From sequence record OZ035754.1: a stretch of 44,622 bases of DNA, one strand, 5' to 3'. The notes beneath the pieces were generated by a model, which saw only the letters and a list, made by a program, of their open reading frames with translations, had not been told where the DNA came from and ran no database searches. The translations under genes and the position numbers were made by a program. Source of the stretch: Kagunavirus BCH953P1. Shown in pieces: positions 26,832-44,020 of the stretch. Each line of letters starts with the position of its first letter. Position 1 is the first letter of the stretch.

Positions 26832-26963
26832 TCACTCCAGCACCCACAGATAAATTGCGATAAACATACCTAATACGGCGACCATCATGCCGTATTGACC
26901 CTCGTGACAGTAGACACCGGCGGCGAATCCCGCCAGTACCGCGATAATCAGTTTACTTAGCAT
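26832..26963 (-). CDS. hypothetical small membrane peptide (43 aa)
   Basis: Read from sequence; hydrophobic; start overlaps DNA polymerase stop. Confidence 0.3.
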   Translation of the reverse strand: MLSKLIIAVLAGFAAGVYCHEGQYGMMVAVLGMFIAIYLWVLE

Positions 26964-29154
26964 AACGCTTCATCTCCGCACCTTCTGCCACAAGAGGGAA
27001 CCCCTCGGCCCAATCAGGTAATTCGCACATTAATTTCTCCAGTTCGGCCACCGTGTACTCGGGGGTGTCCGGAGTTTCGCACACCAGTTCATCGTGTACA
27101 GAAAGCACGATGGGATACCCGCCACCCTCAACATTAATCATTGCATATGCGAGTAAATCACGGCACAGCGCCTGAACAATGTTTTCGCAGGCTTTGCCGC
27201 CGTGCGTGTACAGGGTAGTCCATTGGCGGGTTAACTGGTTTTCACCCTGATACTTGATTCTCACATTCGTGTTTACCCGTCCGTCTTCGTCTGTTTCCTT
27301 TGTCACACTAACGCCGATTCCCGGATACGAGAGGATGCGACCTGACGGCAACTCCATACATAACCACCAACCGGGAACCTTCCTACCGGATGAATCAAAT
27401 TCTACTGTTCTCCAGATTCGGATAGCGCGCTCGCCATTCTTGCGCAGATGTGCCCCCGCCCAAAATTCACGACCCGGATTTCTTACAGCGGCTAAAATAC
27501 CGTCTTTGAGGTCGCGCCAGAACGCTACTGTTTCCGGGTGTGACTCGCGCCACATACGCTTGATTGCGTCGCAGGTGCGCCACACTTTCTTGTCCAGAAT
27601 ATACGATGGTCGGTCATCCTTCTCACCTGGATGCGGGGGGCGCTTGGCTTCCTGAATACGCGCCCACTCATACCCACGTGCGGTAGCAGCCCATATGTGG
27701 TCAGGGAATGTACCGTCCATTGTTTTAGTCATCTCAATAAGGTCGAGGCCTAAGTTTTTGGCGAACGTAACGAACGCTCCTACACCCCCCTCATAGCCGA
27801 GGCCAAGCTCGCAGGCCTTGCCTATCTGTCTGATTTCCTTGAAGTTTTTCTTAATATCATCTGGGTCCATGCCGAACATCTTACCCGCGGTTACGCAGTA
27901 AATATCAAGGCCGGCGCGGAACGTATCGAGCGCGGTTTCTTCACCGGCCAGCCACGCTAAACCGCGACCTTCGACGTTAGAATAATCGGCAACAACAAAC
28001 TTATGTCCTGCTTCCGGTATGATGCAGCTACGCACCGTCGATGCCGTCAGCTTGGCCACGTCGAAACGGCGGTGCGCGCGGCCTTTAAGTAGCGCAGAAA
28101 TGCCTTTATCCAGTTCATCATCGTGATAGTACCCGCGCGCCAGGTTCTGCGGCTGGAAGCCTTTACCTGCCCATCGCAGAGTACGTTTTGCCCCGCCGTA
28201 CTGTAAACACCCCCGACGGCGGTCGTCCGAAGAGCGGCCTAACAACAGCGGGTTATATTTCGTTGATGCGGTGGACGCGGCCCCGAGGCGCATTTCGATA
28301 ATCGTGCGGGCGTCATCCGGTAAGTCCTCGTCCGCCAGCAGGTCGTTAAGGGTAGACTTCTGTGCGTTGTGAATGCGGTGCGCGGGGGCGAGTTCACGCA
28401 GAATCGGAAGGAAGTCCTTTCCGGTAAGCGAGCCGCCGTATTTGCGTTGTGCTTCTTCCTGTAACTGCGCCTTGTGTTTCTCTACGGCTTCAATCGCGGC
28501 TTCCGCCAGTGCAACGTCAACCTTAAACCCGCGGTCGTTGATTAACTGGTCCAATTCCAGTACCCGGTCTTCGAACTCGGAATTACCCCAACGCGGCAGC
28601 TTATGGAATACTTCTCGCATCGCAGTGATGTCGCTCACGGCGTACTTGATGAACAGCGCCCACTCGTCCGGGTGTGTTTCTGCGGTGTAGCGGCGAATTT
28701 TGTAGTTCTTCGGTGTCGGTTTAGAGAAACGCTTAATCAGTGCCTTGCCGCGCTTATCCTTCGCATTGTCAGCGGACACGCCCAGCACTTCGCACAACGC
28801 ATCAAGTGACCCCGGCAGCGCGTGACGAAACGCCCAAATCATCGTATCAATGGTGTTGCTTACCGGAATATCAAAGCCCCAGCAGTGTTTCATGATAAGG
28901 CGATCGAAAAGTCCACCGTTGTGCCACACCATCTTGATGCGGCTGTTTGGCTTAACCAGACGGCGTAACGCGCGGTGCAAATCGCCCGGCATGTCGCTGC
29001 CGTCGGTGCAATCCCATACCTGCACCGGCTCGTCGTCAAAAGCATAGGTACAGATAAGCACTTCGGTAGTTGGGTGTTCAGCGTAGGCGTAGGAACCGAC
29101 TTTCTTTAAATTGGCTTCGGAGAATGTTTCAAAGTCTAAGAACAGGTAACTCAT
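26953..29154 (-). CDS. DNA polymerase, family A, with N-terminal 3'-5' exonuclease domain
   Basis: 733 aa; N-terminal exo I motif LFLDFETFS; C-terminal LSVHDELV motif C-like. Confidence 0.85.
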   Translation of the reverse strand: MSYLFLDFETFSEANLKKVGSYAYAEHPTTEVLICTYAFDDEPVQVWDCTDGSDMPGDLHRALRRLVKPNSRIKMVWHNGGLFDRLIMKHCWGFDIPVSNTIDTMIWAFRHALPGSLDALCEVLGVSADNAKDKRGKALIKRFSKPTPKNYKIRRYTAETHPDEWALFIKYAVSDITAMREVFHKLPRWGNSEFEDRVLELDQLINDRGFKVDVALAEAAIEAVEKHKAQLQEEAQRKYGGSLTGKDFLPILRELAPAHRIHNAQKSTLNDLLADEDLPDDARTIIEMRLGAASTASTKYNPLLLGRSSDDRRRGCLQYGGAKRTLRWAGKGFQPQNLARGYYHDDELDKGISALLKGRAHRRFDVAKLTASTVRSCIIPEAGHKFVVADYSNVEGRGLAWLAGEETALDTFRAGLDIYCVTAGKMFGMDPDDIKKNFKEIRQIGKACELGLGYEGGVGAFVTFAKNLGLDLIEMTKTMDGTFPDHIWAATARGYEWARIQEAKRPPHPGEKDDRPSYILDKKVWRTCDAIKRMWRESHPETVAFWRDLKDGILAAVRNPGREFWAGAHLRKNGERAIRIWRTVEFDSSGRKVPGWWLCMELPSGRILSYPGIGVSVTKETDEDGRVNTNVRIKYQGENQLTRQWTTLYTHGGKACENIVQALCRDLLAYAMINVEGGGYPIVLSVHDELVCETPDTPEYTVAELEKLMCELPDWAEGFPLVAEGAEMKRYAK

Positions 29155-29170
29155 TATTTTCGACCCTTAG

Positions 29171-29194
29171 TAAAAAGGCCCAATGAAGGGCCTT
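29171..29194 (-). terminator. rho-independent terminator after SSB-like gene (minus strand aaggccc-tcatt-gggcctt then TTTTT)
   Basis: Seen directly between 29214 and 29154. Confidence 0.5.
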
Positions 29195-29213
29195 AGTTAA
29201 ATTGATTCGGATA

Positions 29214-29837
29214 TTAGCGGCGACGACGTTCGCGGCGCGGTGCTTCATCTTCGTCGTCTTCGAGGTCATCGACACTTGCAGCAACTTTAGAGCCACCGAA
29301 CGCTTTACCTTCGCCTACGTATTTAATCGCCAGCAGGTTAACACCGAGAACTTTGTATTTCTGGCTGAACCAAATTTCAACGCTTACGTTAGCGACGCAG
29401 CCGCTGTAAACCTGTTCACCTTCAATCTGTTCGCCGTCTACATTGAAGTCCTGCTCTACCTGAGTCTCGCCTTTTTTAGAGGTTACAATCAGCGGTTGTT
29501 TCTGTGCCTTCGCTTTGAAGTAGAAGCCTTCGGGGAAGTCTTCAAACGGATTGTCGCGCTCTGCAATATCTTTAATCGCGCATTTATCCATGTGCTTACC
29601 TTCGCCGTAGTTGGACTTCATCCATTTCTCGGCAGCGGCTGCGCCTAACGCTTCTTCAACTACAGCGTAAACGGTGTCGTAAAGCGCGTCGATTTGAGCA
29701 TGGCCAGACGGCAGGATAATCGTCGCGCTGTACTGGCCTTTAGTGATTGAACCATCATCGTTTTCACGGTCTTTTTCGCGTTCGAATACGTTAACCCATG
29801 CAGTGTTTACTTTACGCAGATTCAGTTTAATACCCAT
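29214..29837 (-). CDS. putative single-stranded DNA-binding protein (DUF2815-like), acidic C-terminal tail
   Basis: 207 aa; acidic tail DDLEDDEDE near C-terminus; sits between polymerase and exonuclease genes; own promoter P4. Confidence 0.45.
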   Translation of the reverse strand: MGIKLNLRKVNTAWVNVFEREKDRENDDGSITKGQYSATIILPSGHAQIDALYDTVYAVVEEALGAAAAEKWMKSNYGEGKHMDKCAIKDIAERDNPFEDFPEGFYFKAKAQKQPLIVTSKKGETQVEQDFNVDGEQIEGEQVYSGCVANVSVEIWFSQKYKVLGVNLLAIKYVGEGKAFGGSKVAASVDDLEDDEDEAPRRERRRR

Positions 29838-29890
29838 CGTGATTTCTCGCTTTTCAGTTTACTCCGGGAACTGCCCGGCCAGTGATTAGA

Positions 29891-29919
29891 ACTATAATAG
29901 CTAACTATTCAGGTGTCAA
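29891..29919 (-). promoter_or_regulatory. sigma70-type promoter P4 (TTGACA-N17-TATAGT), A-family
   Basis: On minus strand TTGACACCTGAATAGTTAGCTATTATAGT in the intergenic gap upstream of 29214..29837. Confidence 0.6.
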
Positions 29920-29923
29920 CACT

Positions 29924-30415
29924 TTATTTGCCGTGATTTTCGTGGAAACCGTACTTAACCTCTGCGGCCTTTCGCGCTGCTATTGCGCCGTCGATAGTTT
30001 CAAAACGTCCGAGATGAATTAGTTTCTTCTCAACTTTTATCTCAGCTCGCCATTTGCCGCGGGTTTTATCGAAACTAACACCCGTCACCCCTGACGTGTT
30101 GTTGCGGGCTAAAGATAAATTACGGCTGTTCTCTTTTCGGGTTGTTTTCCTTAAATTAGAAAGAAGATTATTTTCCCGATTATGGTCAATATGGTCTATC
30201 TCCTCTCCAGGTTGAAGTTTATTTTCAGGGTTCATCATATCCCATATAATTCTATGCGCCAGAAATGTCCTTCCACGTAAACGTACGCACACATAGCCCC
30301 AATTACGGACAGACGCGACCTCGCTCCCAGCGGGTGCACGATTGCTGTTAGTTACGCGCCAATACAACTTACCGGTATTGGTATCATACCTAAAATAATC
30401 TTCCCATTTAATCAT
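29924..30415 (-). CDS. HNH homing endonuclease with AP2 DNA-binding domain (copy 1)
   Basis: HNH motif EIDHIDHNRENN; AP2-like SGVTGVSFDKTRGKWRAEI; start at internal ATG 30415 in ATGA overlap with exonuclease stop. Confidence 0.75.
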   Translation of the reverse strand: MIKWEDYFRYDTNTGKLYWRVTNSNRAPAGSEVASVRNWGYVCVRLRGRTFLAHRIIWDMMNPENKLQPGEEIDHIDHNRENNLLSNLRKTTRKENSRNLSLARNNTSGVTGVSFDKTRGKWRAEIKVEKKLIHLGRFETIDGAIAARKAAEVKYGFHENHGK

Positions 30416-31653
30416 TCCAAATCCTCCTCTGTTACCCCCTTCCACTCAGGTCGTTTGTCGTCCGCCGTTGTAACGCATGGGGCTCCGGGCTTACGCGTGA
30501 TGAAGTTTTTTAGTTCTTCTTCTGGGATAACTTTCAAGGCTGCTGTAGGGGTCATGATTGACTTAGTCATAACTTTATCACCAAATTTAGCAATAACGGC
30601 ATCGGGGTCCGCCCAGGAGCGATTGCCATCCCGCCCTTCAACCAGCTTGTACCCCGGAACTTTCTTACCGGAATGCAACGCGGCAGCCATAGCTTTCTCA
30701 ACCTTGTCGATGTGCTGGCGCAACAACGGCAGCTTCTCATACTCGGCGACGAGTTGCTCTGGCGTCAATTCCAGCGCAAAGTCGTCCTCAAGTTCTTCCG
30801 CCAGTACCGCGTTAACGGTTTTTGTACGCGCGGCGCACTGTTCGGAGAACCGACACCACTGGCAACCATCTACTGACGGCTTGAAGTCCGACGCTTTCAG
30901 GTTCTTCTTGCCACGGAAATACGCATCAAGAGCTAACAGCGCACGTTTCTGTGCAAACTTAGCGAACAGTTCCAGACCTTCAACCGAGATGTCCCACTCC
31001 GACGCACCCCCAGCGTACGGCTGGAAGATGACCAGACGAACCATTGTTATGTTATAACGTCTCTTTAGTCGGCGATAAACACCGAGAGCGTAAAGCATAA
31101 GCTGCTTGTTTTCTTTCGCTTCGACACGATGTCGTCCTGTTTTCAGGTCGCCGATGATAAGCATGTGCTCTTCGGTGTTCGCCAGTTCCTGGACGGCAAC
31201 AAGGTCAGCGGTTCCGAACGTCTCGACACCTTCGTAACCAGGATGCAATACCTCAGTAAGATTGACGCGCATTTCCAGCTTAGCGTAAGTCGCTACGTCC
31301 ATAATCGCTTTGCAGTAGTCGGTGTACTTTCGCACCTGCTCAATCATGTCAGCCGTAATCAGCACCGCGCCTTTCATCGGGCTGATTAGCGCCTTAATCT
31401 GGCCTTTACCCTCATCCAGCACGTAAGCACCGACTTCGCGCTCTAACGGCAGTGCAGTGCCTTTTATGTACTGGTTTAAATGTACCTCAGCTATGGTGTG
31501 ACACGCGGTCCCTGTAACGGCGGCTTTACCTGACGTGTTGGGGATATCTTTTTCACAGGCCAGTGATGCACTGCACGCCAACCATTTCTTAGCACCGGAC
31601 GGTGACAACAGCGCGTGCACATCGTTATTGCCCCTGCGTTCTTTTAATTTCAT
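30412..31653 (-). CDS. PD-(D/E)xK exonuclease (Cas4/RecB-like, DUF2800-like) with C-terminal Cys cluster
   Basis: 413 aa; IIGDLKTGRH...EAKENKQLMLYALG nuclease core; Cys cluster CQWCRFSEQC. Confidence 0.6.
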   Translation of the reverse strand: MKLKERRGNNDVHALLSPSGAKKWLACSASLACEKDIPNTSGKAAVTGTACHTIAEVHLNQYIKGTALPLEREVGAYVLDEGKGQIKALISPMKGAVLITADMIEQVRKYTDYCKAIMDVATYAKLEMRVNLTEVLHPGYEGVETFGTADLVAVQELANTEEHMLIIGDLKTGRHRVEAKENKQLMLYALGVYRRLKRRYNITMVRLVIFQPYAGGASEWDISVEGLELFAKFAQKRALLALDAYFRGKKNLKASDFKPSVDGCQWCRFSEQCAARTKTVNAVLAEELEDDFALELTPEQLVAEYEKLPLLRQHIDKVEKAMAAALHSGKKVPGYKLVEGRDGNRSWADPDAVIAKFGDKVMTKSIMTPTAALKVIPEEELKNFITRKPGAPCVTTADDKRPEWKGVTEEDLE

Positions 31654-32144
31654 CTTTTAACCCCATGATTTTTGTGGAACCCGTAAATCTCTTCTGCTTT
31701 CTTTCTAACGTTTACCGCATCGTCGAAGCTGTCGAAGTATCCTAAATGCTTCAATACCTTGTTTATTTTTATACTTGCCCGCCATCTACCGCGCCTACGG
31801 CACCATGAAACTCCGGTCACACCTGACGTATTTAGCGACGACATTCCAGAATTACGCCGGTTGCCTAGACTGTCAACTTTACGAAGATTAGATATGCGAT
31901 TATTCCTTCTGTCATGGTCTATATGGTCAATCTGGTCGCCGCTACTTAAAACATCATTAGGATTACAAAGTTCCCATATAACACGGTGCACTTTATAGAC
32001 CTTACCTAACACTTGTACCTGTTTATAGCCGTGAACATCATTCGACCCCGCCTCTTGGCCTACCTTTACCTTATCCGAAGGGCTTATCTTCCAAAATAAT
32101 TTACCGGTATCAGGGTCATAGTCAAAAACTTCATGCCAATTCAT
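31650..32144 (-). CDS. HNH homing endonuclease with AP2 domain (copy 2, paralog)
   Basis: HNH motif QIDHIDHDRRNN; AP2-like SGVTGVSWCRRRGRWRASI; ATGA overlaps at both ends. Confidence 0.75.
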   Translation of the reverse strand: MNWHEVFDYDPDTGKLFWKISPSDKVKVGQEAGSNDVHGYKQVQVLGKVYKVHRVIWELCNPNDVLSSGDQIDHIDHDRRNNRISNLRKVDSLGNRRNSGMSSLNTSGVTGVSWCRRRGRWRASIKINKVLKHLGYFDSFDDAVNVRKKAEEIYGFHKNHGVKR

Positions 32145-32413
32145 ACTCTGTTCTCCCACTGGTCGATTAAATGTCTGGTCCGGTGATGACAATGCATAGC
32201 CCAGCCATACATCGACTCGAAGACATAAAAGTCAGGCTTGGCGAATGTCGTGCGCTTAATCTGCGACAAGTGACGGCCTATATCTTTAGGCCGTGGCACT
32301 TTGCCTAAGTACGCCATCTCTTCCATCTGGTGCGCACCGGATGGCGCACGCAATAGCCATAGCGCCTCTGTGCTATCCCGCCGGTCTACGGCGCGGTAGA
32401 GTTGGTAAATCAT
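32141..32413 (-). CDS. hypothetical protein (90 aa)
   Basis: Track ORF. Confidence 0.5.
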   Translation of the reverse strand: MIYQLYRAVDRRDSTEALWLLRAPSGAHQMEEMAYLGKVPRPKDIGRHLSQIKRTTFAKPDFYVFESMYGWAMHCHHRTRHLIDQWENRV

Positions 32414-32456
32414 AATTCCGACCCTCAGTTAAAGCGGCCCGAAGGCCGCGGGATAG

Positions 32457-32975
32457 TTATTCTTCTTCGAAATACTTGTTCTTGATTGCTGTCAGGCGCT
32501 CCAGATACTCAGCCAGGTCTTCGTCTTTAATCGCAGCAATCTTCATCTTCTTACCGGTAAACTCTTCCAGCAGTTCGTCAGAATCGTCGCATGCGGCATC
32601 GCTTGGGCCTTCGTTAATCGCATCGTCGATGGCCTGAATCTGGTTACGAAGAGACTGGTAATCGACTTCTTCTTTATCTTCTTCCGGTTCTGGCGCAGGT
32701 TCCTCTACTTTAGCTTTACGCGGCTTGCGTTTCGGCTTCTCTTCTTCTGCCGGTTTAGTGTCAACTACGTCTTCACCCTCGACCGGGATTTCTTTTGTTT
32801 CTTCTTTTACAACAGTAGGCGTGATTGTTGCAGTTTCTGCGACACCACTGTCGACGTCTTTACCATATGGCGCCGTGATAGCCTTCGGCAGTTCAGTACG
32901 GCGTGCACTGTTCGCAGCAATCAGTTCATGTGCAACTACGAAACGTTCCAGTAATTTTAAGAATTGGTCTAACAT
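32457..32975 (-). CDS. hypothetical acidic protein (172 aa)
   Basis: Track ORF; highly charged central region; first gene downstream of P5. Confidence 0.5.
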   Translation of the reverse strand: MLDQFLKLLERFVVAHELIAANSARRTELPKAITAPYGKDVDSGVAETATITPTVVKEETKEIPVEGEDVVDTKPAEEEKPKRKPRKAKVEEPAPEPEEDKEEVDYQSLRNQIQAIDDAINEGPSDAACDDSDELLEEFTGKKMKIAAIKDEDLAEYLERLTAIKNKYFEEE

Positions 32976-33006
32976 TTGTTTCTCTCCTCTCGTTTGGTAT
33001 GGGCTA

Positions 33007-33035
33007 ACTATAATAGCGAACTATTCACTTGTCAA
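33007..33035 (-). promoter_or_regulatory. sigma70-type promoter P5 (TTGACA-N17-TATAGT), A-family
   Basis: On minus strand TTGACAAGTGAATAGTTCGCTATTATAGT; perfect -35. Confidence 0.6.
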
Positions 33036-33045
33036 TGGGCTTTTC

Positions 33046-33068
33046 TAAAATAATTAATATGGTACTAT
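33046..33068 (+). promoter_or_regulatory. promoter-like element for the HTH gene (B-family -10 block GGTACTATTCAC without a recognisable -35)
   Basis: TACTAT at 33063..33068 with the same flanks as P1/P2/P6; divergent from P5. Confidence 0.4.
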
Positions 33069-33099
33069 TCACATATCAACTGACTAAGGAGTAATTGAC

Positions 33100-33315
33100 A
33101 TGCAACCATCTGAACTAGGCATCCGTGTAGAACAGCGCCGTAAAGAACTCGGCATTTCCCAACGCCGTCTGGCTGTCCTGGCCGGTGTTTCCCAGGGCGC
33201 GATTAACCAGCTGGCACTCGGTGTAACTAAGGACGTCCGCCCGTCGACGTTGTTTAAGCTGGCGGAAGTGCTGCAAGTAGACGCCAAGTGGCTGGCGTTC
33301 GGTGAAGGGGCTTAA
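33100..33315 (+). CDS. XRE-family helix-turn-helix transcriptional regulator (Cro/CI-like)
   Basis: 71 aa; HTH ISQRRLAVLAGVSQGAINQL; SD AAGGAG; opposite orientation to flanking genes. Confidence 0.75.
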   Translation: MQPSELGIRVEQRRKELGISQRRLAVLAGVSQGAINQLALGVTKDVRPSTLFKLAEVLQVDAKWLAFGEGA

Positions 33316-33330
33316 CGCCCCTTTCTTTTT
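33306..33330 (+). terminator. rho-independent terminator (aggggc-ttaac-gcccct then tttcttttt)
   Basis: Seen directly, between convergent HTH and primase genes. Confidence 0.6.
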
Positions 33331-33332
33331 AC

Positions 33333-35573
33333 CTACTCCAAATCCTCCTCTGTCACCACCAGCATTTCATTCGGTTCGTATATTGTCTTCGGCCTTAGTC
33401 TATCCCCTATTCTTTCAGGTATACGATATGTTCTCGGTACTACTTCGCCATTAGCGTCGCAGCCTAGCATCAACTCACCGTCTTTCAGCATTTTATCAAG
33501 ATGGGTGTTAGTCACAGAAAAGTCACCGGAACGGGCCACTATCTGCTGCTGGGTAAAACCGCGACCTGTATCATCTGACTGTTGCAGGTCTTCCAGTGCT
33601 GAAAGTATTGACTCCTTCCTTACTTCATCCCTGCCGCGTTTAACTTCTTCCTTTACTTTTTGTTTACCTTCGTTAGTTAACCCTTCTTCCCGCTCTTTCT
33701 CCTCGTCAGTTTTGAACGGCTCGAAACCCCACGGCATAAGCACAAGCGCCTTGTGCGGCTCCGGCAGGTCGAGGTTTACTATTGTGCCGTATTCCTCTGT
33801 GCTACCGAGGAACTCAACCGCGCGATACTCTTTCGGCGGAGGAGCTTCACGAAACTGTACAGACTCCAGCACCATACCAACCGTTTTCTGTTGAGGCCCG
33901 TGCTTAAATTTCGAATGGTATACGTTTATCTGGCGGTCGGTTGCACGTTCAATTGTCAGTTCCACGTCGACGCCCGCATACAGCGCCCCACTACCACGGG
34001 CTTTCTTTCCGCCCTTCGGCGTATGGTGGACGACGCCAACCGCAGCTTTAGTCGCGTCGCGTACTTCTTTCAGTATGGCGATAACTTTACCCATGCCAAT
34101 CGCCGTTGATGAACTGTTTTCGTCGAACTTATCAATCGTCAGGGCCAGCGTCTGGTTTAGGGTGTCGAACGCAACCATACCGATTGGCTCGTCGCCGGCG
34201 GTTTCACGCATCAACTTAATAAGGCTTTTCAGTTTGCCAACTTCGCCCATGTCGATGACATGTACATAATCTTTACCTTCCTCGCCGTATTTAGCCGCGA
34301 GTGCGTCAATACGTGTGCGTGTAGCTGCGCCGCCCTCACCGTCAATATAGAAATGGTGGCAACGCTGGGTATCCGCCCCTGCAAACCGGTATCCGGCGGC
34401 GCTCAGGTACATCATCCCCAGCGTATAGAACGATTTGTACGTGCCGGATTCCCCAACAATATCCCAGATACAATCTGACGGCATGTACCCCTCAACGACG
34501 AAATCAGCCTTTACCGGTTCCGGTAGCTCGTCCTCTTCTGAGTCATCATCGTCTTCCAGGTCGTCGAGGCTGCATGAAACAGATTCACGCGCACCCCATC
34601 CGATAGCCTCGGCGACTTCACTGAACGGCAGCCCGGTCGCATCACACGCGTATTTCCACACTTCTTTCGGTGACATGCCTTCGGTCGCCGCAATGTCGGT
34701 GTCGTGAATCATGGTTACGTTAGGTGCGGCGTAGCCCTCACGTGGGAAGCACAGCAGGAAGTCGTCCGGACGCGGTGTCGGGTCGCTGTAGTTTTCTGCA
34801 TGCTCTGGTGTGGCTGGCATCTTAAGGCCGCGTGGTGTCATAGCACCGCCGTACTCGAACGCCAACGCCTCAAAAGCGTCCGTAAACGCTGTGCGTAGTT
34901 CTTCCGGTATCTGGTAGTCAGATGCGCTGCTCACCTCGTAATCCGGGATGCCCTCCAGTAACTCGTCCGGGTCAATCAGGTCGTTACGGCGCGACCAGAT
35001 AACCTGCGAGCCGACCGGCGGCAGGTACATCGGCTGAGACAGAGTGAACCCGCTGCGGTCCGCACCCATGCCTTTGAAGAAGTGTTCCAACAATCCATGA
35101 CGAACGCGGATGATGTCACCGCCCTCAACCGTTCGGGCCAGCGGCATGACGACGCGAAAGCGCGGGGCTTCGTCTGTGTGTGATGCCGTGGTGTAGAGGC
35201 ACATGGCTTTACGGCTGCGCTTAACCAGGCGCACAGCTTCCTGATACTCTTCCAGGGTTGCGCTGTCGAAGTCCAGGTACGTCAGCGACGATTTGTTTAC
35301 AGACGCGTCGCAGCGGTAGAAGAAGCCCCGGCGCGCTTGCTTAAAGTCACCGGTTTCCGGGTCTTTTACGGTGCTGTGCGTAGAATCGCACGCGGCAGTA
35401 ATATAGCCCGGCGCGGTCTTCGGATTAATCCCGTCACGAACGGCATCGAGCGGCTGGATTAACTCTTTCAGGTCGTCCAGTGTTGCCGTGTGAGTGGTTC
35501 TGACGTTTATATCCTTTTTCTCTGCCCGCGCGTTGCGACGAGACCACGAGTAGGATAAAATTACATCGGACAT
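33333..35573 (-). CDS. DNA primase/helicase (RecA-like AAA_25-type ATPase domain in C-terminal half)
   Basis: 746 aa; Walker A-like VGESGTYKS, Walker B-like region; N-terminal half unassigned (primase-like by position). Confidence 0.6.
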   Translation of the reverse strand: MSDVILSYSWSRRNARAEKKDINVRTTHTATLDDLKELIQPLDAVRDGINPKTAPGYITAACDSTHSTVKDPETGDFKQARRGFFYRCDASVNKSSLTYLDFDSATLEEYQEAVRLVKRSRKAMCLYTTASHTDEAPRFRVVMPLARTVEGGDIIRVRHGLLEHFFKGMGADRSGFTLSQPMYLPPVGSQVIWSRRNDLIDPDELLEGIPDYEVSSASDYQIPEELRTAFTDAFEALAFEYGGAMTPRGLKMPATPEHAENYSDPTPRPDDFLLCFPREGYAAPNVTMIHDTDIAATEGMSPKEVWKYACDATGLPFSEVAEAIGWGARESVSCSLDDLEDDDDSEEDELPEPVKADFVVEGYMPSDCIWDIVGESGTYKSFYTLGMMYLSAAGYRFAGADTQRCHHFYIDGEGGAATRTRIDALAAKYGEEGKDYVHVIDMGEVGKLKSLIKLMRETAGDEPIGMVAFDTLNQTLALTIDKFDENSSSTAIGMGKVIAILKEVRDATKAAVGVVHHTPKGGKKARGSGALYAGVDVELTIERATDRQINVYHSKFKHGPQQKTVGMVLESVQFREAPPPKEYRAVEFLGSTEEYGTIVNLDLPEPHKALVLMPWGFEPFKTDEEKEREEGLTNEGKQKVKEEVKRGRDEVRKESILSALEDLQQSDDTGRGFTQQQIVARSGDFSVTNTHLDKMLKDGELMLGCDANGEVVPRTYRIPERIGDRLRPKTIYEPNEMLVVTEEDLE

Positions 35574-35631
35574 ATTGTATATTCCTTCAGCAAGTAATTT
35601 GGCCTCGGCGCTCTAACGTCGGGGCTTTCTT

Positions 35632-35865
35632 TTATTCCAGGTCTTCTAAAGTAGCGGCCATTCCGCGAACTTCAGCAACAGCACTATATTTCCCACCAAC
35701 ATTTTTCACGACACCAGATTTAACCAGCACCTTCAACGACCCTTCAATAATGGCGGAACTATAGTACCTAAAATAACTACGGCGCAAGTCGATAACGCTG
35801 CACGACCCTTTTTTACGTGTTAACGAAACGACTGCCGTGAATACGCGTGACTGGAACTCGGTCAT
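35632..35865 (-). CDS. hypothetical protein (77 aa)
   Basis: Track ORF; C-terminus ends EDLE like two other proteins in this block. Confidence 0.5.
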   Translation of the reverse strand: MTEFQSRVFTAVVSLTRKKGSCSVIDLRRSYFRYYSSAIIEGSLKVLVKSGVVKNVGGKYSAVAEVRGMAATLEDLE

Positions 35866-36032
35866 TTCACATTCTCCTTAATCCACGCTTCCACTTTCTC
35901 CGGGTCAAACGTACCCGGCTGACGGCGGCCCATAATGCGGATACAACAATCCGGGAACTTCCCGCTCTTTAGCCAGTTATTCAGTGTGCGACGAGTAACC
36001 CCGATACGCTCGGCTACTTCATTCTGTGTCAT
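35862..36032 (-). CDS. small HTH DNA-binding protein (AlpA/excisionase-like fold), probable early regulator
   Basis: HTH MTQNEVAERIGVTRRTLNNW; start taken at internal ATG 36032 because the predicted promoter P9 lies at 36066..36093 (track ORF extends to 36065). Confidence 0.5.
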   Translation of the reverse strand: MTQNEVAERIGVTRRTLNNWLKSGKFPDCCIRIMGRRQPGTFDPEKVEAWIKENVK

Positions 36033-36065
36033 TCTCAAACCCTCAGTATCAGTTAACGAAACCAA

Positions 36066-36093
36066 GTATACATTGCGAATAATGGGAAATCAA
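36066..36093 (-). promoter_or_regulatory. candidate sigma70 promoter P9 (TTGATT-N16/17-TATACT) for the minus-strand replication operon
   Basis: Read on minus strand; moderate match. Confidence 0.35.
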
Positions 36094-36182
36094 ACATAAT
36101 CGCACCTATTGACATTATGAAAATCTTCGTTTAAGGTGCTTCTATATCTTAGTTACTTTGATTCCTGTTCACCTTGTAAGAA

Positions 36183-36216
36183 TGTTTAACCCGTGCGTCA
36201 AGCAAAGGGTTAAACA
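36183..36216. promoter_or_regulatory. inverted repeat tgtttaaccc / gggttaaaca (10-bp arms, 14-nt spacer) in the early control region
   Basis: Seen directly. Confidence 0.4.
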
Positions 36217-36370
36217 CAGGCTTACTGAACACGAGAATTATCATAACTTTCCTTCCTTAGTATCTCCGGTTGCCCTGGGCAAGCTATATTCTCATCAACG
36301 GCATATCTCTTAAGTATCTGATTTTCTTAATGTGCCGTAGATTCGCAACCGTAAAAATGTAACCCTTACC

Positions 36371-36394
36371 GGGCGGGCTTAAGGCCCGCCCTTT
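36371..36394 (+). terminator. GC-rich hairpin gggcgggc-ttaag-gcccgccc followed by TTT
   Basis: Seen directly, in intergenic region upstream of P6. Confidence 0.4.
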
Positions 36395-36464
36395 AGTTAC
36401 AAAGTAATAAGAATAAAGGCACGACCCTGCCTGAAGAATCACAACGGCAACGTAACTATTCTCT

Positions 36465-36493
36465 TGCACACCCCAACATAATAGGATACTATT
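36465..36493 (+). promoter_or_regulatory. sigma70-type promoter P6 (TTGCAC-N17-TACTAT), B-family
   Basis: TTGCACACCCCAACATAATAGGATACTAT; near-identical to P1/P2; 25 nt upstream of the first plus-strand early gene. Confidence 0.6.
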
Positions 36494-36517
36494 CACTTAT
36501 CGTAACGAGACAGAGGA

Positions 36518-36712
36518 GTGAGGGTTATGTTTAAGAAGGGTCAGTTGGTGAAGATTTTGGAGACCGGAGAGTTAGCGGTTATCTCATTTATGCACCACAG
36601 AGAATATGAGGTCTATTTTGCTAAATCTTTAACGGAGTCCTATCTCACCGTGCTATACGCGCAAGATATGAAACTCATCGGCAACAATTTTAAATTCAAA
36701 GGGGCGAAGTGA
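36518..36712 (+). CDS. hypothetical early protein (64 aa)
   Basis: Track ORF; SD GGAGTGAGGG. Confidence 0.5.
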   Translation: MRVMFKKGQLVKILETGELAVISFMHHREYEVYFAKSLTESYLTVLYAQDMKLIGNNFKFKGAK

Positions 36713-36912
36713 TGGAAGAATTATTTGAGGAACTGAAACATCATGAGTTCGAGGAGATATATTTTGTAGCTGGACGCTACGAGGCGCATTTAGTGGACGG
36801 GATTACACTTATTACGGTGGATAGCCTGCAAATGTTAAATAGCTTACGTGCGCTACGAACGGCATCGAATCATGATGCTCGTGCCGACGACTCTGAGGGA
36901 GGTTGCCGTTGA
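36712..36912 (+). CDS. hypothetical early protein (66 aa)
   Basis: Track ORF 36709..36912, start set at ATG overlapping upstream stop. Confidence 0.45.
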   Translation: MEELFEELKHHEFEEIYFVAGRYEAHLVDGITLITVDSLQMLNSLRALRTASNHDARADDSEGGCR

Positions 36913-37169
36913 TGAATAATACTGAACTGAAAACAGTAGCGGAATATAACCGTAAAATACGGGTCATGCGTCGTGGTGCGGGGCTGGAGCAGTTCTATAA
37001 CATGTGGCGCATTGCGACGCGCGACCCTGAGTTTCTTCAGACAGGTTATTATTCCATTAAAGGCATTATCCCGATTCGTGCACGTAAGGATTATGGTTGG
37101 GTTCGTGAGACCCCTAATCTTTTGTGGTGCTGGTATTGTGGTGAATTCTGGGTAAGGGTTAAGGACTGA
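36912..37169 (+). CDS. hypothetical early protein (85 aa)
   Basis: Track ORF 36903..37169, start set at ATG in TGATG overlap. Confidence 0.45.
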   Translation: MNNTELKTVAEYNRKIRVMRRGAGLEQFYNMWRIATRDPEFLQTGYYSIKGIIPIRARKDYGWVRETPNLLWCWYCGEFWVRVKD

Positions 37170-37240
37170 GTTATGAATAATTACCCGTTTATTTTAATCG
37201 TCAGCGTCGTTTATGTGGCGCACGTGTTGTGGGGTTTGGT

Positions 37241-37441
37241 ATGAGCAAGTGGATTAAGTGTAGTGAGCGGATGCCGCGCTGCGAGCCGGGTAGGTGGTCA
37301 AAAGATGTTATTGCACTAAGTGATACTGGGGAGGTGTTTCGTCTGGCCTGTCAAGGTGAATACTGGCAAAGAACGTCAGCGTTCGTTGAATCAGGTTCAG
37401 AAAAAGTGGTTGCATGGATGCCGTTCCCTGATGAGGACTAA
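37241..37441 (+). CDS. DUF551-like protein (copy 1)
   Basis: MSKWIKCSERMP...W..WMPFP pattern typical of the DUF551 phage family; paralog at 37592..37777. Confidence 0.55.
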   Translation: MSKWIKCSERMPRCEPGRWSKDVIALSDTGEVFRLACQGEYWQRTSAFVESGSEKVVAWMPFPDED

Positions 37442-37444
37442 GTT

Positions 37445-37588
37445 ATGAGAGAAGCATTTGAACGGTGGGCCGTCATCGAGGGTCTGCCGGTCAACAAGGG
37501 TTCAAAGAAAGAGTACCTGAACGTTAAGACCCGTCTCGCGTGGCGGGCGTGGAGAGCTGGTGTGCAAGCGGTTATGGACCGGGGGTGA
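37445..37588 (+). CDS. hypothetical small protein (47 aa)
   Basis: Read from sequence, fills the gap between the two DUF551 genes. Confidence 0.3.
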   Translation: MREAFERWAVIEGLPVNKGSKKEYLNVKTRLAWRAWRAGVQAVMDRG

Positions 37589-37591
37589 GAT

Positions 37592-37777
37592 ATGGGCGAG
37601 TGGATTATGTGTAGTGAACGGATGCCGGAGCCTTATGAATACGTTCTTGTAACTGATTGTTTTGTTGGCTGTGAGGTTATGCGTGTTAATTCAGATGGCT
37701 ACTGGGGGCCCGCAAAGAGTTTATATCACGGTGATATCACCCACTGGATGCCATTACCGGAGCCGCCAGAAGCGTGA
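37592..37777 (+). CDS. DUF551-like protein (copy 2)
   Basis: EWIMCSERMPEPYEYVLV...HWMPLPEPP. Confidence 0.55.
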   Translation: MGEWIMCSERMPEPYEYVLVTDCFVGCEVMRVNSDGYWGPAKSLYHGDITHWMPLPEPPEA

Positions 37778-37818
37778 TGTTATATTGTAACAATAGCTTG
37801 GGATTTTACTGAGTGACT

Positions 37819-37840
37819 TACGCTGCTGTGCAGCAGCGTA
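37819..37840. repeat. near-perfect palindrome TACGCTGCTG-tg-CAGCAGCGTA
   Basis: 10-bp perfect arms seen directly in a 227-bp intergenic region. Confidence 0.6.
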
Positions 37841-37944
37841 CAACTTTAACTTAGTGTCGTCAAAAGGTGACACTTTTCACCAAACGCAACAATCGAGGCG
37901 ACTATTGCAGGAGATGCAACAATACAAACACCAATAAAATTTAC

Positions 37945-37973
37945 TTGCACACTGAGATAGAATAGGCTACTGT
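37945..37973 (+). promoter_or_regulatory. sigma70-type promoter P7 (TTGCAC-N17-TACTGT), B-family
   Basis: TTGCACACTGAGATAGAATAGGCTACTGT followed by TCATTTACAC as in the other B-family copies. Confidence 0.5.
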
Positions 37974-38004
37974 TCATTTACACAAACGAGAGGAGAGATA
38001 GAAG

Positions 38005-38154
38005 ATGGTTACTTTGATGGTTATGGAGTTTGAAAACAGCGTAGCAACTTACCGTGAGATGACTATGGTGCAGGCGTATCACCTGGCATCAAACGGCAAC
38101 TTCTACAAGGCTCAAATCATCAACGAGTTCGGGGTAATTGACTATGAATTTTAA
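38005..38154 (+). CDS. hypothetical small protein (49 aa)
   Basis: Read from sequence; SD GAGGAGAG. Confidence 0.35.
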   Translation: MVTLMVMEFENSVATYREMTMVQAYHLASNGNFYKAQIINEFGVIDYEF

Positions 38155-38416
38155 CAGCTACACCGTTACCGTTGATTTTGAGGGGCTGGAGTTGCCCCTC
38201 CCCAACAACTACCGATATGTCACGCGCGACCGTAACGGGTTTATCCAGGGGTGGAGGAACAAACCGACAGATACTGAGTTCGGGATGTCGGGCGGCGAAG
38301 AGTTGCCGATCACTTTCGGGCATCAGAGTAGCAACGAAGAGCTTAAAACTGTGATTCGTAAGTATCGCCGCCGCGGTAACACTGGGCTTATAGCAATAAC
38401 AGGTGCTGTTGAATAG
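38144..38416 (+). CDS. hypothetical protein (90 aa)
   Basis: Track ORF 38138..38416; start at ATG 38144. Confidence 0.5.
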   Translation: MNFNSYTVTVDFEGLELPLPNNYRYVTRDRNGFIQGWRNKPTDTEFGMSGGEELPITFGHQSSNEELKTVIRKYRRRGNTGLIAITGAVE

Positions 38417-38434
38417 ACGAGAGGAGAGACAGAG

Positions 38435-38653
38435 ATGTTCCTGGAATGTAAATCCTATGATGGATATTGGGCGCTGACTAAAAATGACTTATACCACCTA
38501 AAAGAGGACGGCGACGAGAGCCGCTGCTACGTAATAGACGACAACGGCACTGAACTTGATGTCTATTACACCGGTTATGGCCGATGGGCGCTATCCGCTG
38601 ACGATGACTTTGTGTTCGAAGAATATAACGGAGAGGAATCAGAAGATGAGTAA
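38435..38653 (+). CDS. hypothetical small acidic protein (72 aa)
   Basis: Track ORF; SD GAGGAGAG; acidic C-terminus EESEDE. Confidence 0.5.
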   Translation: MFLECKSYDGYWALTKNDLYHLKEDGDESRCYVIDDNGTELDVYYTGYGRWALSADDDFVFEEYNGEESEDE

Positions 38654-39155
38654 CAAAAACGAAGTATTCGAGTACCTGATTGACCAGTTACGACAGCAGG
38701 TAACTAACAACCCGCACAAGCAACAGTGCGAAGACCTGGCGCATGAGGTGCAGTCGCTTAAGAATCAGTTACGTGATGCGTCGGCGCTGGTGGCTGAGTT
38801 GCAGGAAACAATAAAACTAATGAATGAGGACTTCGACAGTGTAACCAACCGCGGCGGCCCACTGCCTAAAGGGAAGAGCTACGTAGTAGGCGAACACGGA
38901 CCAGAGCAATCCGGTTGCCGTAAGGAAGATACTCAGGAATGCGAGCACTCTTGGATTATTATGCCTGGGTTGTTTCTCAGCGAAGGCAATACGAACAACG
39001 TTCCTGGTAGTGAGCTTTGCTCTAAATGTGGTAAACGTGAGTGGGACGACAAGGAATATAAACCGAAAAACGATACACAGGAGTGCGAGCATGAATGGGA
39101 ATATTATTACCCCGACGGTAGGCGTTGTACCAAATGCGGGGTGATAAACTTATGA
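38646..39155 (+). CDS. coiled-coil protein with two C-terminal zinc-ribbon-like repeats (QECEH-x-W ... C-x-KCG)
   Basis: Track ORF 38556..39155, start at internal ATG; repeats QECEHSW...CSKCGK and QECEHEW...CTKCG. Confidence 0.5.
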   Translation: MSNKNEVFEYLIDQLRQQVTNNPHKQQCEDLAHEVQSLKNQLRDASALVAELQETIKLMNEDFDSVTNRGGPLPKGKSYVVGEHGPEQSGCRKEDTQECEHSWIIMPGLFLSEGNTNNVPGSELCSKCGKREWDDKEYKPKNDTQECEHEWEYYYPDGRRCTKCGVINL

Positions 39156-39355
39156 CCAGCATCTTATTTATCTGGGTACTGTCAGCAGGCCAGATGCAAC
39201 TAGCGGCATCAGAAACGTTTTACTCGATGGAGGCGTGCCGGTCAGCGGCACGCGCCGCAGAGAACGCGCACTTCCTGTTTCAGGGCGACAAGCCAAACGA
39301 TTCAGAGGTACGCGCTATCTGCTCACCTAAGCGACTTGGTAAACAGGAGAAGTGA
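39152..39355 (+). CDS. hypothetical small protein with N-terminal signal-peptide-like segment
   Basis: ATGA overlap; MTSILFIWVLSAGQMQLAAS hydrophobic N-terminus. Confidence 0.4.
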   Translation: MTSILFIWVLSAGQMQLAASETFYSMEACRSAARAAENAHFLFQGDKPNDSEVRAICSPKRLGKQEK

Positions 39356-39357
39356 TT

Positions 39358-39537
39358 ATGGTGCAGAGGTACTTATTACAAGGCGGTTTAATCGGGCCGC
39401 ACGATGCGGGTGATTGGGTTGGCTACGAAGATTACGCGGAGCTGGAGCGCAAACTGCGTAACTTCGCCGACCAGGTATTGTACGCACCCTGTTCGAAAGT
39501 TACCGAAGAAATGGCCCGCGAGATTCTCGGAATATGA
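39358..39537 (+). CDS. hypothetical protein (59 aa)
   Basis: Track ORF 39352..39537. Confidence 0.45.
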   Translation: MVQRYLLQGGLIGPHDAGDWVGYEDYAELERKLRNFADQVLYAPCSKVTEEMAREILGI

Positions 39538-39827
39538 GCCTCGCAACTGACATCCTGAAACGAAGCGGCCTTGCGCCGCTGTCACCGAGAGCTAAAACAC
39601 AGATATACAAGCGCCGGGGTAATGCGCTGTTCCCTGAGATTCAGGCCCGACGCAAGGCTATCCGCGCCTGTGGATTCCAGAACGGGAAGGCCGTGAATCT
39701 CGGTGAGTTCAAAACACAGGAACGCGCAGCAATCGCTAATCGGTTATTTAATTACTGGAAATCGCTGGGGTACGATGATATTCCAACGAAACCGCAGAGA
39801 CGACAATACATCTGGAGACATAAATGA
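39534..39827 (+). CDS. hypothetical basic protein (97 aa)
   Basis: Track ORF, ATGA overlap. Confidence 0.5.
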   Translation: MSLATDILKRSGLAPLSPRAKTQIYKRRGNALFPEIQARRKAIRACGFQNGKAVNLGEFKTQERAAIANRLFNYWKSLGYDDIPTKPQRRQYIWRHK

Positions 39828-40264
39828 CTACAATCGCGTTTGACGGAAAGACAATGGCCTGCGACACCCGTGTTGTGTGCGGAAGTAACTGCTACAACAC
39901 TGACACAAAGATATACGAGAATGATTTTGCTGTTATTGGGGTGGCTGGTGATGCTGGAGTAGGGGCTATGCTTATCGATTGCTCTGGTATTCTTCTGGCA
40001 AAGCACTATGACTTCGATTTCGAAGCTCTGGTGTTCGTGAAAGACACAGAAAAGGTGTACAAAGTTGCGTTTTATAAATCATGGGATTGCGCACTAAGTT
40101 CGGTTATCCCTGTTGCCGATGTGCGCGCTGCCGTAGGGTCCGGCGCCCCTTATGCACTGGCGGCTATGTATTTGGGTGAAACCGCAACACGTGCGATTAC
40201 TGTAGCCGCGCAATTCGACACTAACACTGGGGGCAAGGTTATTACCAAACAACTATTAAGATAA
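39824..40264 (+). CDS. HslV / proteasome beta-subunit-like Ntn-hydrolase fold protein (truncated relative to bacterial HslV)
   Basis: N-terminus MTTIAF (Thr after initiator Met), segment KIYENDFAVIGVAGDAGVG and GSGAPYALAAMYL resemble HslV conserved blocks (recalled from E. coli HslV, not searched). Confidence 0.5.
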   Translation: MTTIAFDGKTMACDTRVVCGSNCYNTDTKIYENDFAVIGVAGDAGVGAMLIDCSGILLAKHYDFDFEALVFVKDTEKVYKVAFYKSWDCALSSVIPVADVRAAVGSGAPYALAAMYLGETATRAITVAAQFDTNTGGKVITKQLLR

Positions 40265-40278
40265 TTCCTACCCGTGCT

Positions 40279-40318
40279 ATCCTCCAGTTACTGCATACTT
40301 AATACGCACCTGGAGGAT
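40279..40318 (+). promoter_or_regulatory. stem-loop atcctccag ... ctggaggat (9-bp stem, 22-nt loop) whose 3' arm forms the GGAGGA ribosome-binding site of the holin gene
   Basis: Seen directly; could occlude the RBS. Confidence 0.4.
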
Positions 40319-40323
40319 TCATC

Positions 40324-40632
40324 TTGGATAAATTTACTGAAACAGTGACAGGCTGGCTTCTCGCTGCCGCGCTAGCCGGAGGGGTAATCGGACTACGACA
40401 ACATAAGTCCGTTATTTCTGGCCCTATCGACGGATTCTGCTTTATCGCAATGGGCTTCACTTGCGCCGTATTTGGAGCACCTCTCGCAGCTCAATGGTTC
40501 GGTATCACGGGCGACCGTGAAATCGCGGGCCTGGGCTTCATTATCGCCGTTCTCTGGATGCCTATCTATTCCCGTCTCTCCGGTATCGTCGCCGGAGAAT
40601 ACATCGCACGTCGAGGAGGCCCAGATGAATGA
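40324..40632 (+). CDS. putative holin (membrane protein, TTG start)
   Basis: 102 aa with about three hydrophobic segments; GGAGGA 6 nt upstream of TTG; immediately upstream of endolysin. Confidence 0.5.
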   Translation: MDKFTETVTGWLLAAALAGGVIGLRQHKSVISGPIDGFCFIAMGFTCAVFGAPLAAQWFGITGDREIAGLGFIIAVLWMPIYSRLSGIVAGEYIARRGGPDE

Positions 40633-40897
40633 GTTATTCTGGTTCGGTGGTATGCTGGCAATCGGAGGCACATCGCTGTTTAATGTGTACCATCCGAGTA
40701 TTGACGACGGGCTATTTGGCCGGGTGCTCTATATCCTGACTGCTATCGTCTGCGCTGCCGGATGTATCCACCTGTTACAGGGCAGCATGTCGCCAACGCT
40801 GCCTGAGACATTAATCACATTAGTTGCGCTGCGCCAGATTCGCCAGGCGTGGCTGGCATACGGAGGACATAAGCGTGTCTCGAAACATTTCAGATAA
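40625..40897 (+). CDS. second small membrane protein of the lysis cassette (holin/antiholin-like)
   Basis: 90 aa, two hydrophobic segments; start at internal ATG of track ORF 40472..40897. Confidence 0.45.
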   Translation: MNELFWFGGMLAIGGTSLFNVYHPSIDDGLFGRVLYILTAIVCAAGCIHLLQGSMSPTLPETLITLVALRQIRQAWLAYGGHKRVSKHFR

Positions 40898-41363: not shown

Positions 41364-41427
41364 CACCTGAGACTAATCCGACGATACTTAAATCACCTCC
41401 TGCTCCATCCCTCTACTCTCCAGTTTT

Positions 41428-41460
41428 ATCCCGGCCCTGACCCAGCCGGGATTTTTTTTT
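41428..41460 (+). terminator. rho-independent terminator (atcccggc-loop-gccgggat then T9)
   Basis: GC stem followed by nine T, seen directly after the endolysin gene. Confidence 0.75.
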
Positions 41461-41482
41461 ATCTATTTTCTGCAATGACTAG

Positions 41483-41511
41483 TTGACTATTACTCTCACA
41501 CCAATTATATT
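41483..41511 (+). promoter_or_regulatory. sigma70 promoter P8 (TTGACT-N17-TATATT)
   Basis: Strong consensus match, directly after the terminator and about 35 nt upstream of 41545. Confidence 0.55.
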
Positions 41512-41544
41512 TACTCCATCGACAACGAGAACGGAGTAGAGAAG

Positions 41545-42911: not shown

Positions 42912-42913
42912 TT

Positions 42914-43144: not shown

Positions 43145-43146
43145 TT

Positions 43147-43747: not shown

Positions 43748-43862
43748 TGAGACTACTAATCATCCCGAACGCCTGGGCTATCGCCGTAGCTAATGACCAT
43801 TACGGCGGCGACGGTAAAAGAGCACCGCGGCACCGCATATACAACTGATTGGAGAGTGAAAA

Positions 43863-44012: not shown

Positions 44013-44020
44013 CAACACCA

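Follow-up and report, generated by a model that had tools for sequence, protein, structure and literature searches.

Two free-standing HNH genes with AP2-like ends at the exonuclease of a Kagunavirus: probable homing endonuclease genes acquired independently

How did two similar nuclease genes come to lie on either side of one exonuclease gene in a phage replication region? The question is raised by Kagunavirus BCH953P1, sequence record OZ035754.1, whose 44,622 nucleotides (nt) are here called the window and make up the complete genome of an E. coli siphophage of the Guernseyvirinae. On its minus strand the exonuclease gene (exo) is directly flanked by two open reading frames (ORFs) for HNH proteins, HNH-U on the upstream side and HNH-D on the downstream side, and both were found at the limits that a preliminary description of the locus had given (Table 1). 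The analysis indicates, with a probability of about 75%, that HNH-U and HNH-D are independently acquired free-standing homing endonuclease genes (HEGs), combining an I-HmuI-like HNH domain with an AP2-like one, at the junctions flanking exo. The alignments show each gene to have moved recently between diverged backbones together with the adjacent end of exo, namely ~245 nt of the 3' end for HNH-D and ~216 nt of the 5' end for HNH-U. There is good support, though no proof, that a nuclease drove this movement by homing.

The movement of HNH-D emerges from a comparison of the window with OZ035805, a record likewise named BCH953P1. The two phages are probably sister isolates of one project; a Logan contig of run ERR12949623 equals the window over the 7.5 kb compared, and OZ035805 matches the neighboring run ERR12949622. 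Their genomes are 99.9% identical over 28 kb (positions 1-23525 and 39697-44622) and 92-98% identical between. In a four-way alignment, window positions ~29.8-30.65 kb are 100% identical to the distant phages SHAK7693 and Ivi, forming a patch of ~840-910 bp whose exo part is 71-74% identical to the sister phage. From 30712 the window returns to 100% identity with OZ035805 and ~85% with SHAK7693 and Ivi. The informative sites at 29799-30634 comprise 143 consecutive SHAK7693-type sites, followed on the exo side by 45 of the sister type; on the other side, toward the gene for a single-stranded-DNA-binding and annealing protein (SSB), the sites are predominantly of the sister type, and the first ~13-30 codons of SSB fall within the patch. 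Whichever of the two sister phages is derived, the patch passed recently between the SHAK7693/Ivi and window lineages.

The gene recurs nearly unchanged, at 99-100% identity, in six other backbones, namely those of SHAK7693 and Ivi and of four Logan/ENA contig groups. Identity of these six to the window is 99.2-100% in HNH-D, 96-100% in the last 245 nt of exo, 88-93% in the middle of exo, 82-89% at its 5' end and 71-93% in the polymerase gene. All 21 pairs of the seven backbones share 98.4-100% nucleotide identity in HNH-D; mid-exo identity is 88-93% in most pairs, with two related pairs at 96% and 99%. The exo-side border of this island always lies 213-300 nt inside exo (30628-30715), and the SSB-side border lies 22 to 430 nt past the HNH-D stop codon. 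The accompanying exo 3' allele (last ~245 nt) is 72% identical to the sister phage, 96-100% identical to that of seven of the eight other HNH-D-positive loci compared and 85% identical to that of HSE2. Among 331 matching phage records, a 235-nt form of this allele occurs at 99% identity or more only in Ivi and SHAK7693, both carriers of HNH-D, and in the other Kagunavirus records listed only its terminal 142 nt align, at 82-86%.

For HNH-U, the evidence of movement consists of one near-isogenic pair of metagenomic contigs, L092 and L093, and the comparison of the window with OZ035805. L092 carries an HNH-U-like gene that L093 lacks, and the two differ by an exact 491-nt insertion corresponding to this gene, by three substitutions in the last 14 nt of the upstream gene ORF90 and by 41 substitutions within exo's first 216 nt; just one more occurs over the next 4.5 kb. 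Over the first ~90 nt of exo, L092 has the window's allele at most differing sites. This contig (metagenome run ERR10745091) is a second double carrier, with an HNH-U-like gene at 96.7% nucleotide identity to that of the window; HNH-D together with the window's exact HNH-U was found in no other phage record, IMG/VR contig or retrieved contig searched. Two decayed HNH-U-like copies, in fBC-Eco01 and at locus L036, have in common another distinctive exo 5' allele. A separate patch of 55 substitutions between L092 and L093 lies ~650 nt upstream of the insertion, in the N-terminal part of ORF172 (positions 927-1119 of the locus), and may have arisen either by an exchange of its own or, through a discontinuous tract, in the same event. 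The proposal that the HNH genes mark recent exchange is thereby borne out: both lie in near-identity islands, the rest of the backbones being ~90% identical, and some copies are degenerate.

The two proteins are 48% identical over 161 amino acids (aa) without gaps, a similarity that is judged to exceed chance by far because BLASTP returns E = 6e-58. The N-terminal block (WEDYFRYDTNTGKLYW / WHEVFDYDPDTGKLFW) and the HNH motif (EIDHIDHNRENN / QIDHIDHDRRNN) previously ascribed to them can be read in both. The Pfam family HNH_3 scores 46.8 bits in HNH-D and 44.8 bits in HNH-U against a gathering score of 24.8, and phrog_99, 'HNH endonuclease', matches the two at E = 3e-63 and 2e-65. A profile built from 12 HNH proteins of the exo-flanking slots was compared with PDB sequences and matches I-HmuI (1U3E) over positions 26-101 at E = 2.7e-7, with D74, H75, N87 and N96 aligned to the same 1U3E positions. 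H75, N83 and N87 are invariant among the 12 proteins, and D74, N96 and N99 are nearly so. In I-HmuI, D-H...N...N are the catalytic and metal-binding residues of the beta-beta-alpha-metal motif, and this motif is, as judged by alignment, intact in both HNH-D and HNH-U. For the AP2-like C-terminus, Pfam AP2 (PF00847) stays below its 33.3-bit gathering score in both proteins (HNH-D 28.9 bits, E = 1.4e-6, full-length at 1-52/54; HNH-U 19.7), and the 12-sequence profile does match the plant AP2/ERF structures 7ET4 and 7WQ5 over positions 95-155 at E ~ 1e-3 (1GCC at 0.25).

I-HmuI of Bacillus phage SPO1 is a nickase with a C-terminal helix-turn-helix DNA-binding domain, and its gene lies within a group I intron. 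The HNH proteins resemble it in their N-terminal beta region, in the HNH core and in size (163-174 aa), and differ in being free-standing, without an intron, and in their AP2-like end. Each is a separate ORF with its own start and stop codons at a gene junction, and an intron-encoded origin was ruled out, since Rfam at its gathering score matched nothing in the window and, with the limit set at E <= 1, nothing in 29000-33400. No further HNH copies were found in the window by tblastn. A 97-aa ORF on the plus strand (39534-39827; phrog_9632/phrog_4947) has a weak likeness to the AP2-like C-terminus (hhalign E = 0.0011, probability 21%; no Pfam match), phrog_4947 has a weak match of its own to HNH-D's AP2 region, and the ORF may encode a stand-alone AP2-like DNA-binding protein.

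Comparison with relatives lacking the HNH genes, which the preliminary description had set as a test, shows that neither gene is universal and that HNH-free alleles are the large majority. The survey covered 47 Kagunavirus-type exo loci, with the U slot measurable except in two without a full-length ORF90 match. The D slot, between exo and SSB, is empty (~90 nt) in 20 loci; in 23 it contains small ORFs of 235-335 nt that are unrelated, and in four it contains HNH-D (577 nt). The U slot, between ORF90 and exo, is empty in 26 loci, where ORF90 and exo overlap at an ATGA; 13 loci have non-nuclease inserts of 136-480 nt, three have another HNH lineage (45% identical) and two have intact HNH-U. One locus each carries a frameshifted HNH-U-like copy, that of fBC-Eco01 (72% identical, same site), and an internally deleted HNH-U remnant, that of L036. 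Both HNH genes therefore show presence/absence polymorphism at fixed sites among close relatives, and the degenerate HNH-U copies are consistent with the cycle of invasion, decay and loss of homing genes. Since the U slot also accepts inserts of 136-480 nt of unknown function, the ORF90/exo junction is a general hot spot for accessory genes. In some HNH-D-positive phages (L090, L094, L095; positions 1919-2266 of the locus) it holds a 115-aa ORF with a weak match to Pfam Phage_ProQ_C_like.

Close relatives of either gene are few among the 50,697 phage records searched. HNH-D has relatives above 90% identity in three of 3638 matching records, all directly after exo: SHAK7693 (100%; SHAK7693_0049, WVW77728.1, annotated 'HNH endonuclease'), Ivi (99.4%; ECPH5_65) and HSE2 (~92-93%, an older copy; gp009). 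HNH-U is found at 100% in one phage record, OZ035805, where it is unannotated; an orthologue is also present as EKD3228036.1. Apart from the frameshifted fBC-Eco01 copy, the remaining HNH matches are at most 54% identical, and they belong to a very large family, for which over 3,000 phage records match at E < 1e-5. In a larger protein collection, exact HNH-D occurs on 13-16 contigs, HNH-U falls in a 90% cluster of 22 members and the window's exact exo protein, the product of a mosaic gene, is on one contig. IMG/VR contains no relative closer than 53% for either HNH protein, so the population evidence comes from GenBank phages and Logan/ENA contigs. The GenBank taxonomy of SHAK7693 (L008, OR594180.1), which is named vB_EcoM, reads Autographiviridae; Studiervirinae; Kayfunavirus. 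This line looks wrong because the genome shares its gene order with the Kagunavirus window and is ~88-90% identical to it throughout.

The boundaries of the two slots can be read to the base pair. An empty U slot has the form ...GGGAGAACAGGGT-ATGA-TTCTAAAAGAACGC, and the window has ...GGGAGAACAGAGT-ATGA-[HNH-U]-GGGGTTAAAAG-ATGA-AATTAAAAGAACGC. HNH-U is thus a 491-nt insertion bounded by the ATGA motifs at 32141-32144 and 31650-31653, and because it sits between them it occupies the translation-initiation region of an HNH-less exo. The 3' end of ORF90 bears a Shine-Dalgarno (SD) sequence, GGGAGAA, and the ATGA, which serve exo in HNH-free phages and HNH-U in the window; exo in the window takes its start signals from the 3' end of HNH-U. 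In the D slot, all cassettes, HNH or small ORF, start at one junction, and every one ends on the right at AAAGTGTTGACA, the -35 region of the SSB promoter. The exo tail reads AGT GAA GAA GAT TTR GAA TAA where the slot is empty and ACA GAG GAG GAT TTR GAA TGA T, with an SD in synonymous codons followed by ATGA, where it is occupied. This form is perfectly linked to occupancy (20 and 26 loci, one variant), so the translation start signals of a cassette belong to the exchanged unit. The D slot of OZ035805 holds a small-ORF cassette with a 57-aa ORF; given this and the common borders, HNH-D in the window displaced such a cassette instead of entering an empty site.

The arrangement of these junctions also qualifies an earlier statement that the HNH genes are joined to their neighbors by ATGA stop/start overlaps. 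Three overlaps were read, between ORF90 and HNH-U, HNH-U and exo, and exo and HNH-D (30412-30415), each HNH gene beginning at one with its SD in the upstream gene. The TAA stop of HNH-D is free of overlap and is followed by an 86-nt intergenic region containing the strong sigma-70-like SSB promoter. As a feature specific to HNH genes the overlaps were ruled out because 4-nt overlaps are frequent in these genomes, occurring at 19 of 84 same-strand junctions in the SHAK7693 annotation, and every D-slot cassette has the same junction; they are best read as a general operon style, shared in the D slot by all cassettes. Neither HNH gene has its own promoter, and both are embedded in the replication operon. 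Between the promoter at 33007-33035 and position 29919 there is no terminator-like site with a convincing stem. ORF172, ORF90, HNH-U, exo and HNH-D look like one operon, probably starting at that predicted promoter. The region would therefore be read from promoters at 33035-33007 and 29919-29891, with SSB separately promoted after HNH-D.

The proposed homing mechanism, modeled on I-HmuI-type and free-standing HNH endonucleases, runs as follows. During co-infection, the HNH enzyme would bind the HNH-less allele through its AP2-like and N-terminal domains at a site in or next to the exo segments described above, and its HNH center (D74/H75/N87/N96) would nick or cut there. The break would be repaired by the phage's own recombination machinery, the exonuclease and the annealing protein, with the HNH-positive genome as template, and repair would copy the HNH gene and co-convert the intervening flank. 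A carrier would escape its own enzyme because the exo end that accompanies each HNH gene is divergent. The observed conversion tracts are asymmetric, long into exo and short on the other side, which fits target sites within exo and is equally explained by crossovers limited to where homology resumes. In line with the mobile elements that the preliminary description proposed, the locus displays the signatures expected of free-standing HEGs: fixed slots, sporadic presence, near-identity islands and degenerate copies.

Several observations weigh against homing as the cause of these movements. Both slots also hold many non-nuclease small-ORF cassettes with identical borders, and the fixed exo-side border of the HNH-D island could be simply the point where homology resumes past the divergent segment. 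Among controls, the small-ORF class of the D slot in L016, L017, L026 and L047 has cassettes 96-100% identical and exo 3' ends 97-99.6% identical, against 85-89% in mid-exo in five of six pairs. Because this class shows an island, D-slot cassettes can be exchanged without an encoded nuclease, and an island as proof of nuclease-driven homing is weakened; the small-ORF class of the OZ035805 type shows none (cassette 86-96%, exo 3' 65-91%). The sister phages also have mosaic patches away from the HNH genes, at 28309-28873 and 33337-39177, and the rarity of both genes in the population means that neither is sweeping. The cassettes, the island of the small-ORF class and the mosaic patches favor the unlikely alternative that the HNH genes are passive cargo, their nuclease inactive or irrelevant to transfer. 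Like the small ORFs in these slots, they would move by ordinary homologous recombination between co-infecting phages, the ORF90/exo and exo/SSB junctions being general hot spots of cassette exchange with conserved sequence (the exo ends, ATGA and the SSB promoter's -35 region) at their borders. In keeping with this, D holds at least three classes of non-nuclease ORF and U at least five insert sizes, all with common borders. Passive carriage accords poorly, however, with the intact catalytic residues of both proteins and with an HNH-D island that is the most uniform of all. Clustering by slot across genera fits site-specific enzymes, the decay products match the life cycle of homing genes, and HNH plus AP2 is an established HEG family (PMC10448857). 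In a further picture, decidedly doubtful, the slots would be a cassette-exchange system whose borders are written in the coding ends of exo (synonymous-codon SD and ATGA), and the HNH enzymes would be its break-making engines, one per exo end, whose breaks also shuffle small-ORF cassettes and exo termini through trans-homing or collateral mobilization. If true, it would account for the concentration of mosaicism in this 3-kb region, which exceeds that of any other part of genomes that are otherwise 99.9% identical.

The shared architecture, similar length and 48% identity of the two genes could suggest a local, tandem-type duplication in which one was copied across exo within the genome, an origin that is scarcely credible given their separate occurrence. 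HNH-D is found without HNH-U in SHAK7693, Ivi, HSE2 and several metagenomic contigs, and HNH-U without HNH-D in OZ035805. In a neighbor-joining tree of 23 slot HNH proteins (identity distances, 100 bootstraps), Kagunavirus U-slot proteins group in 83 of 100 replicates, proteins of a slot between the polymerase and SSB genes in 100, all D-slot proteins in 49 and same-genome pairs of D and U in none. Proteins of the same slot in different genera are 51-52% identical, no less than those of one genome (45-48%). A recent duplication is thus refuted by the groupings, and the ancient common ancestry of the whole HNH family is not in question. Because the genes group by insertion slot and not by genome, they are not in-situ duplicates, and members of one HNH family colonized the D and U slots independently. 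The term 'paralogous' once applied to them is apt for membership of one family and misleading if taken as local duplication. In the Guernseyvirinae, the SSB-DNA polymerase junction is a third recurrent HNH slot, occupied by a distinct lineage ~30% identical to D and U (L001, L021, L084-L086), and PhiSTP1 has HNH genes in all three slots. The order HNH-exo-HNH also occurs in the Cornellvirus phages Shemara and PhiSTP1, with proteins ~50% identical. This recurrence, together with predicted co-transcription and translational linkage with replication and recombination genes and precedents such as the HK97 terminase partner (PMC10448857), could point to domesticated nucleases kept for the phage's benefit in replication, recombination, host-DNA degradation or competitor exclusion. 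Such a role is very improbable, as most Kagunaviruses replicate without either HNH gene, frameshifted and deleted copies are tolerated, the two genes occur apart, and the slots elsewhere are empty or filled with unrelated small ORFs.

Table 1. Positions of genes, predicted signals and exchanged tracts in the window
Feature	Position	Strand	Description
DNA polymerase A gene	26953-29154	minus	
SSB gene	29214-29837	minus	Enc34/gp2.5-like single-stranded-DNA-binding and annealing protein; downstream neighbor of HNH-D
HNH-D patch relative to sister phage BCH953P1 (OZ035805)	maximal 29751-30658; minimal 29799-30634	minus	143 consecutive donor-type sites
Sigma-70-like promoter of SSB gene	29891-29919	minus	TTGACA-17-TATAGT, 11/12
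HNH-D gene	29924-30415	minus	163 aa; ATG at 30415; stop TAA; HNH_3 + AP2-like; final gene of the probable operon
exo	30412-31653	minus	413 aa; exonuclease, DUF2800 / PD-(D/E)XK, Cas4-like
HNH-D-linked exo 3' allele	30416-30658	minus	last ~245 nt of exo; contains SD GAGGAGGA in synonymous codons
HNH-U-linked exo 5' tract	31438-31653	minus	first ~216 nt of exo; co-converted with HNH-U; candidate HNH-U target location
HNH-U gene	31650-32144	minus	164 aa; ATG at 32144; HNH_3 + AP2-like; free-standing
ORF90	32141-32413	minus	90 aa; phrog_4965; unknown function
ORF172	32457-32975	minus	172 aa; phrog_3127; unknown function; first gene of the probable operon
Sigma-70-like promoter upstream of ORF172	33007-33035	minus	TTGACA-17-TATAGT, 11/12
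Helicase-primase gene	33333-35573	minus	

The features around the HNH genes are collected in Table 1. The recombination exonuclease between them matches Pfam DUF2800 at 233 bits and PDDEXK_1. In the 5' leader of SSB, between its promoter and start codon, lies a 5-bp GC hairpin, CCGGG-AACTG-CCCGG on the plus strand (29864-29878). Of the 11 loci aligned, the ten with Kagunavirus D-slot alleles keep it and the divergent L041 has it slightly changed; it could serve in translational control as an operator, or as a site of processing. Elsewhere, the sister phages differ by patches of third-party ancestry, such as those at 28309-28873 (N-terminus of DNA polymerase) and 33331-33730 (end of helicase-primase), and the window's ~520 nt at 39178-39696 have no counterpart in OZ035805.

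A comparison with known systems places these genes among phage HEGs. Proteins with an N-terminal HNH and a C-terminal AP2 domain form an established HEG family, comprising the 'IPA-HNH' class and its precedents in phages, cyanobacteria and protists, and HEGs mark recombination boundaries near essential replication genes (PMC10448857). HNH-D and HNH-U resemble this class in having an HNH domain ahead of an AP2-like end, in their placement by replication genes and in lying at boundaries of recombination tracts; the IPA-HNH proteins of ICP1 are too divergent for Pfam HNH_3, in contrast to the strong matches seen here. T4-type free-standing HEGs (MobE, Seg) are intergenic, are expressed from neighboring operons, have a conserved target gene nearby but away from the insertion site and co-convert their flanks, and this locus resembles them, with exo as the predicted target gene. 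MobE, a free-standing HNH enzyme of T4, makes strand-specific nicks in its target (PMC2790892). The Mob proteins pair HNH with a zinc-finger domain (PMC10448857) where HNH-D and HNH-U have an AP2-like one. The I-HmuI-like HNH genes of lactococcal Skunavirus vary in copy number and position among close phages, cluster by insertion site, as observed here, and are tied to mosaicism and marker exclusion (PMC12724721); that study includes marker-exclusion experiments, in a host and phage group that differ from Kagunavirus. In papers on Jerseyvirus and Kagunavirus, such HNH genes figure just as mobile or accessory elements (PMC8425127, PMC5582158), and no characterized HNH plus AP2 member from the Guernseyvirinae was found in the searchable literature.

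The concept is therefore one already known for phage HEGs, and the locus marks no departure from it. What is new is descriptive: slots defined to the base pair, two near-isogenic pairs with mapped conversion tracts, and the finding that each HNH gene is linked with one exo end. Together they make a clean natural case, resolved to the base pair, of free-standing HNH-AP2 mobility in the Guernseyvirinae. The near-isogenic pairs, the window phage and OZ035805 for HNH-D and the phages of ERR10745091 and ERR10744860 for HNH-U, predict target sites at the two exo ends and are ready material for homing and marker-exclusion work. For Kagunavirus engineering and therapy, both slots are tolerated insertion points, and carriers of the HNH genes may out-compete or convert related phages in cocktails.

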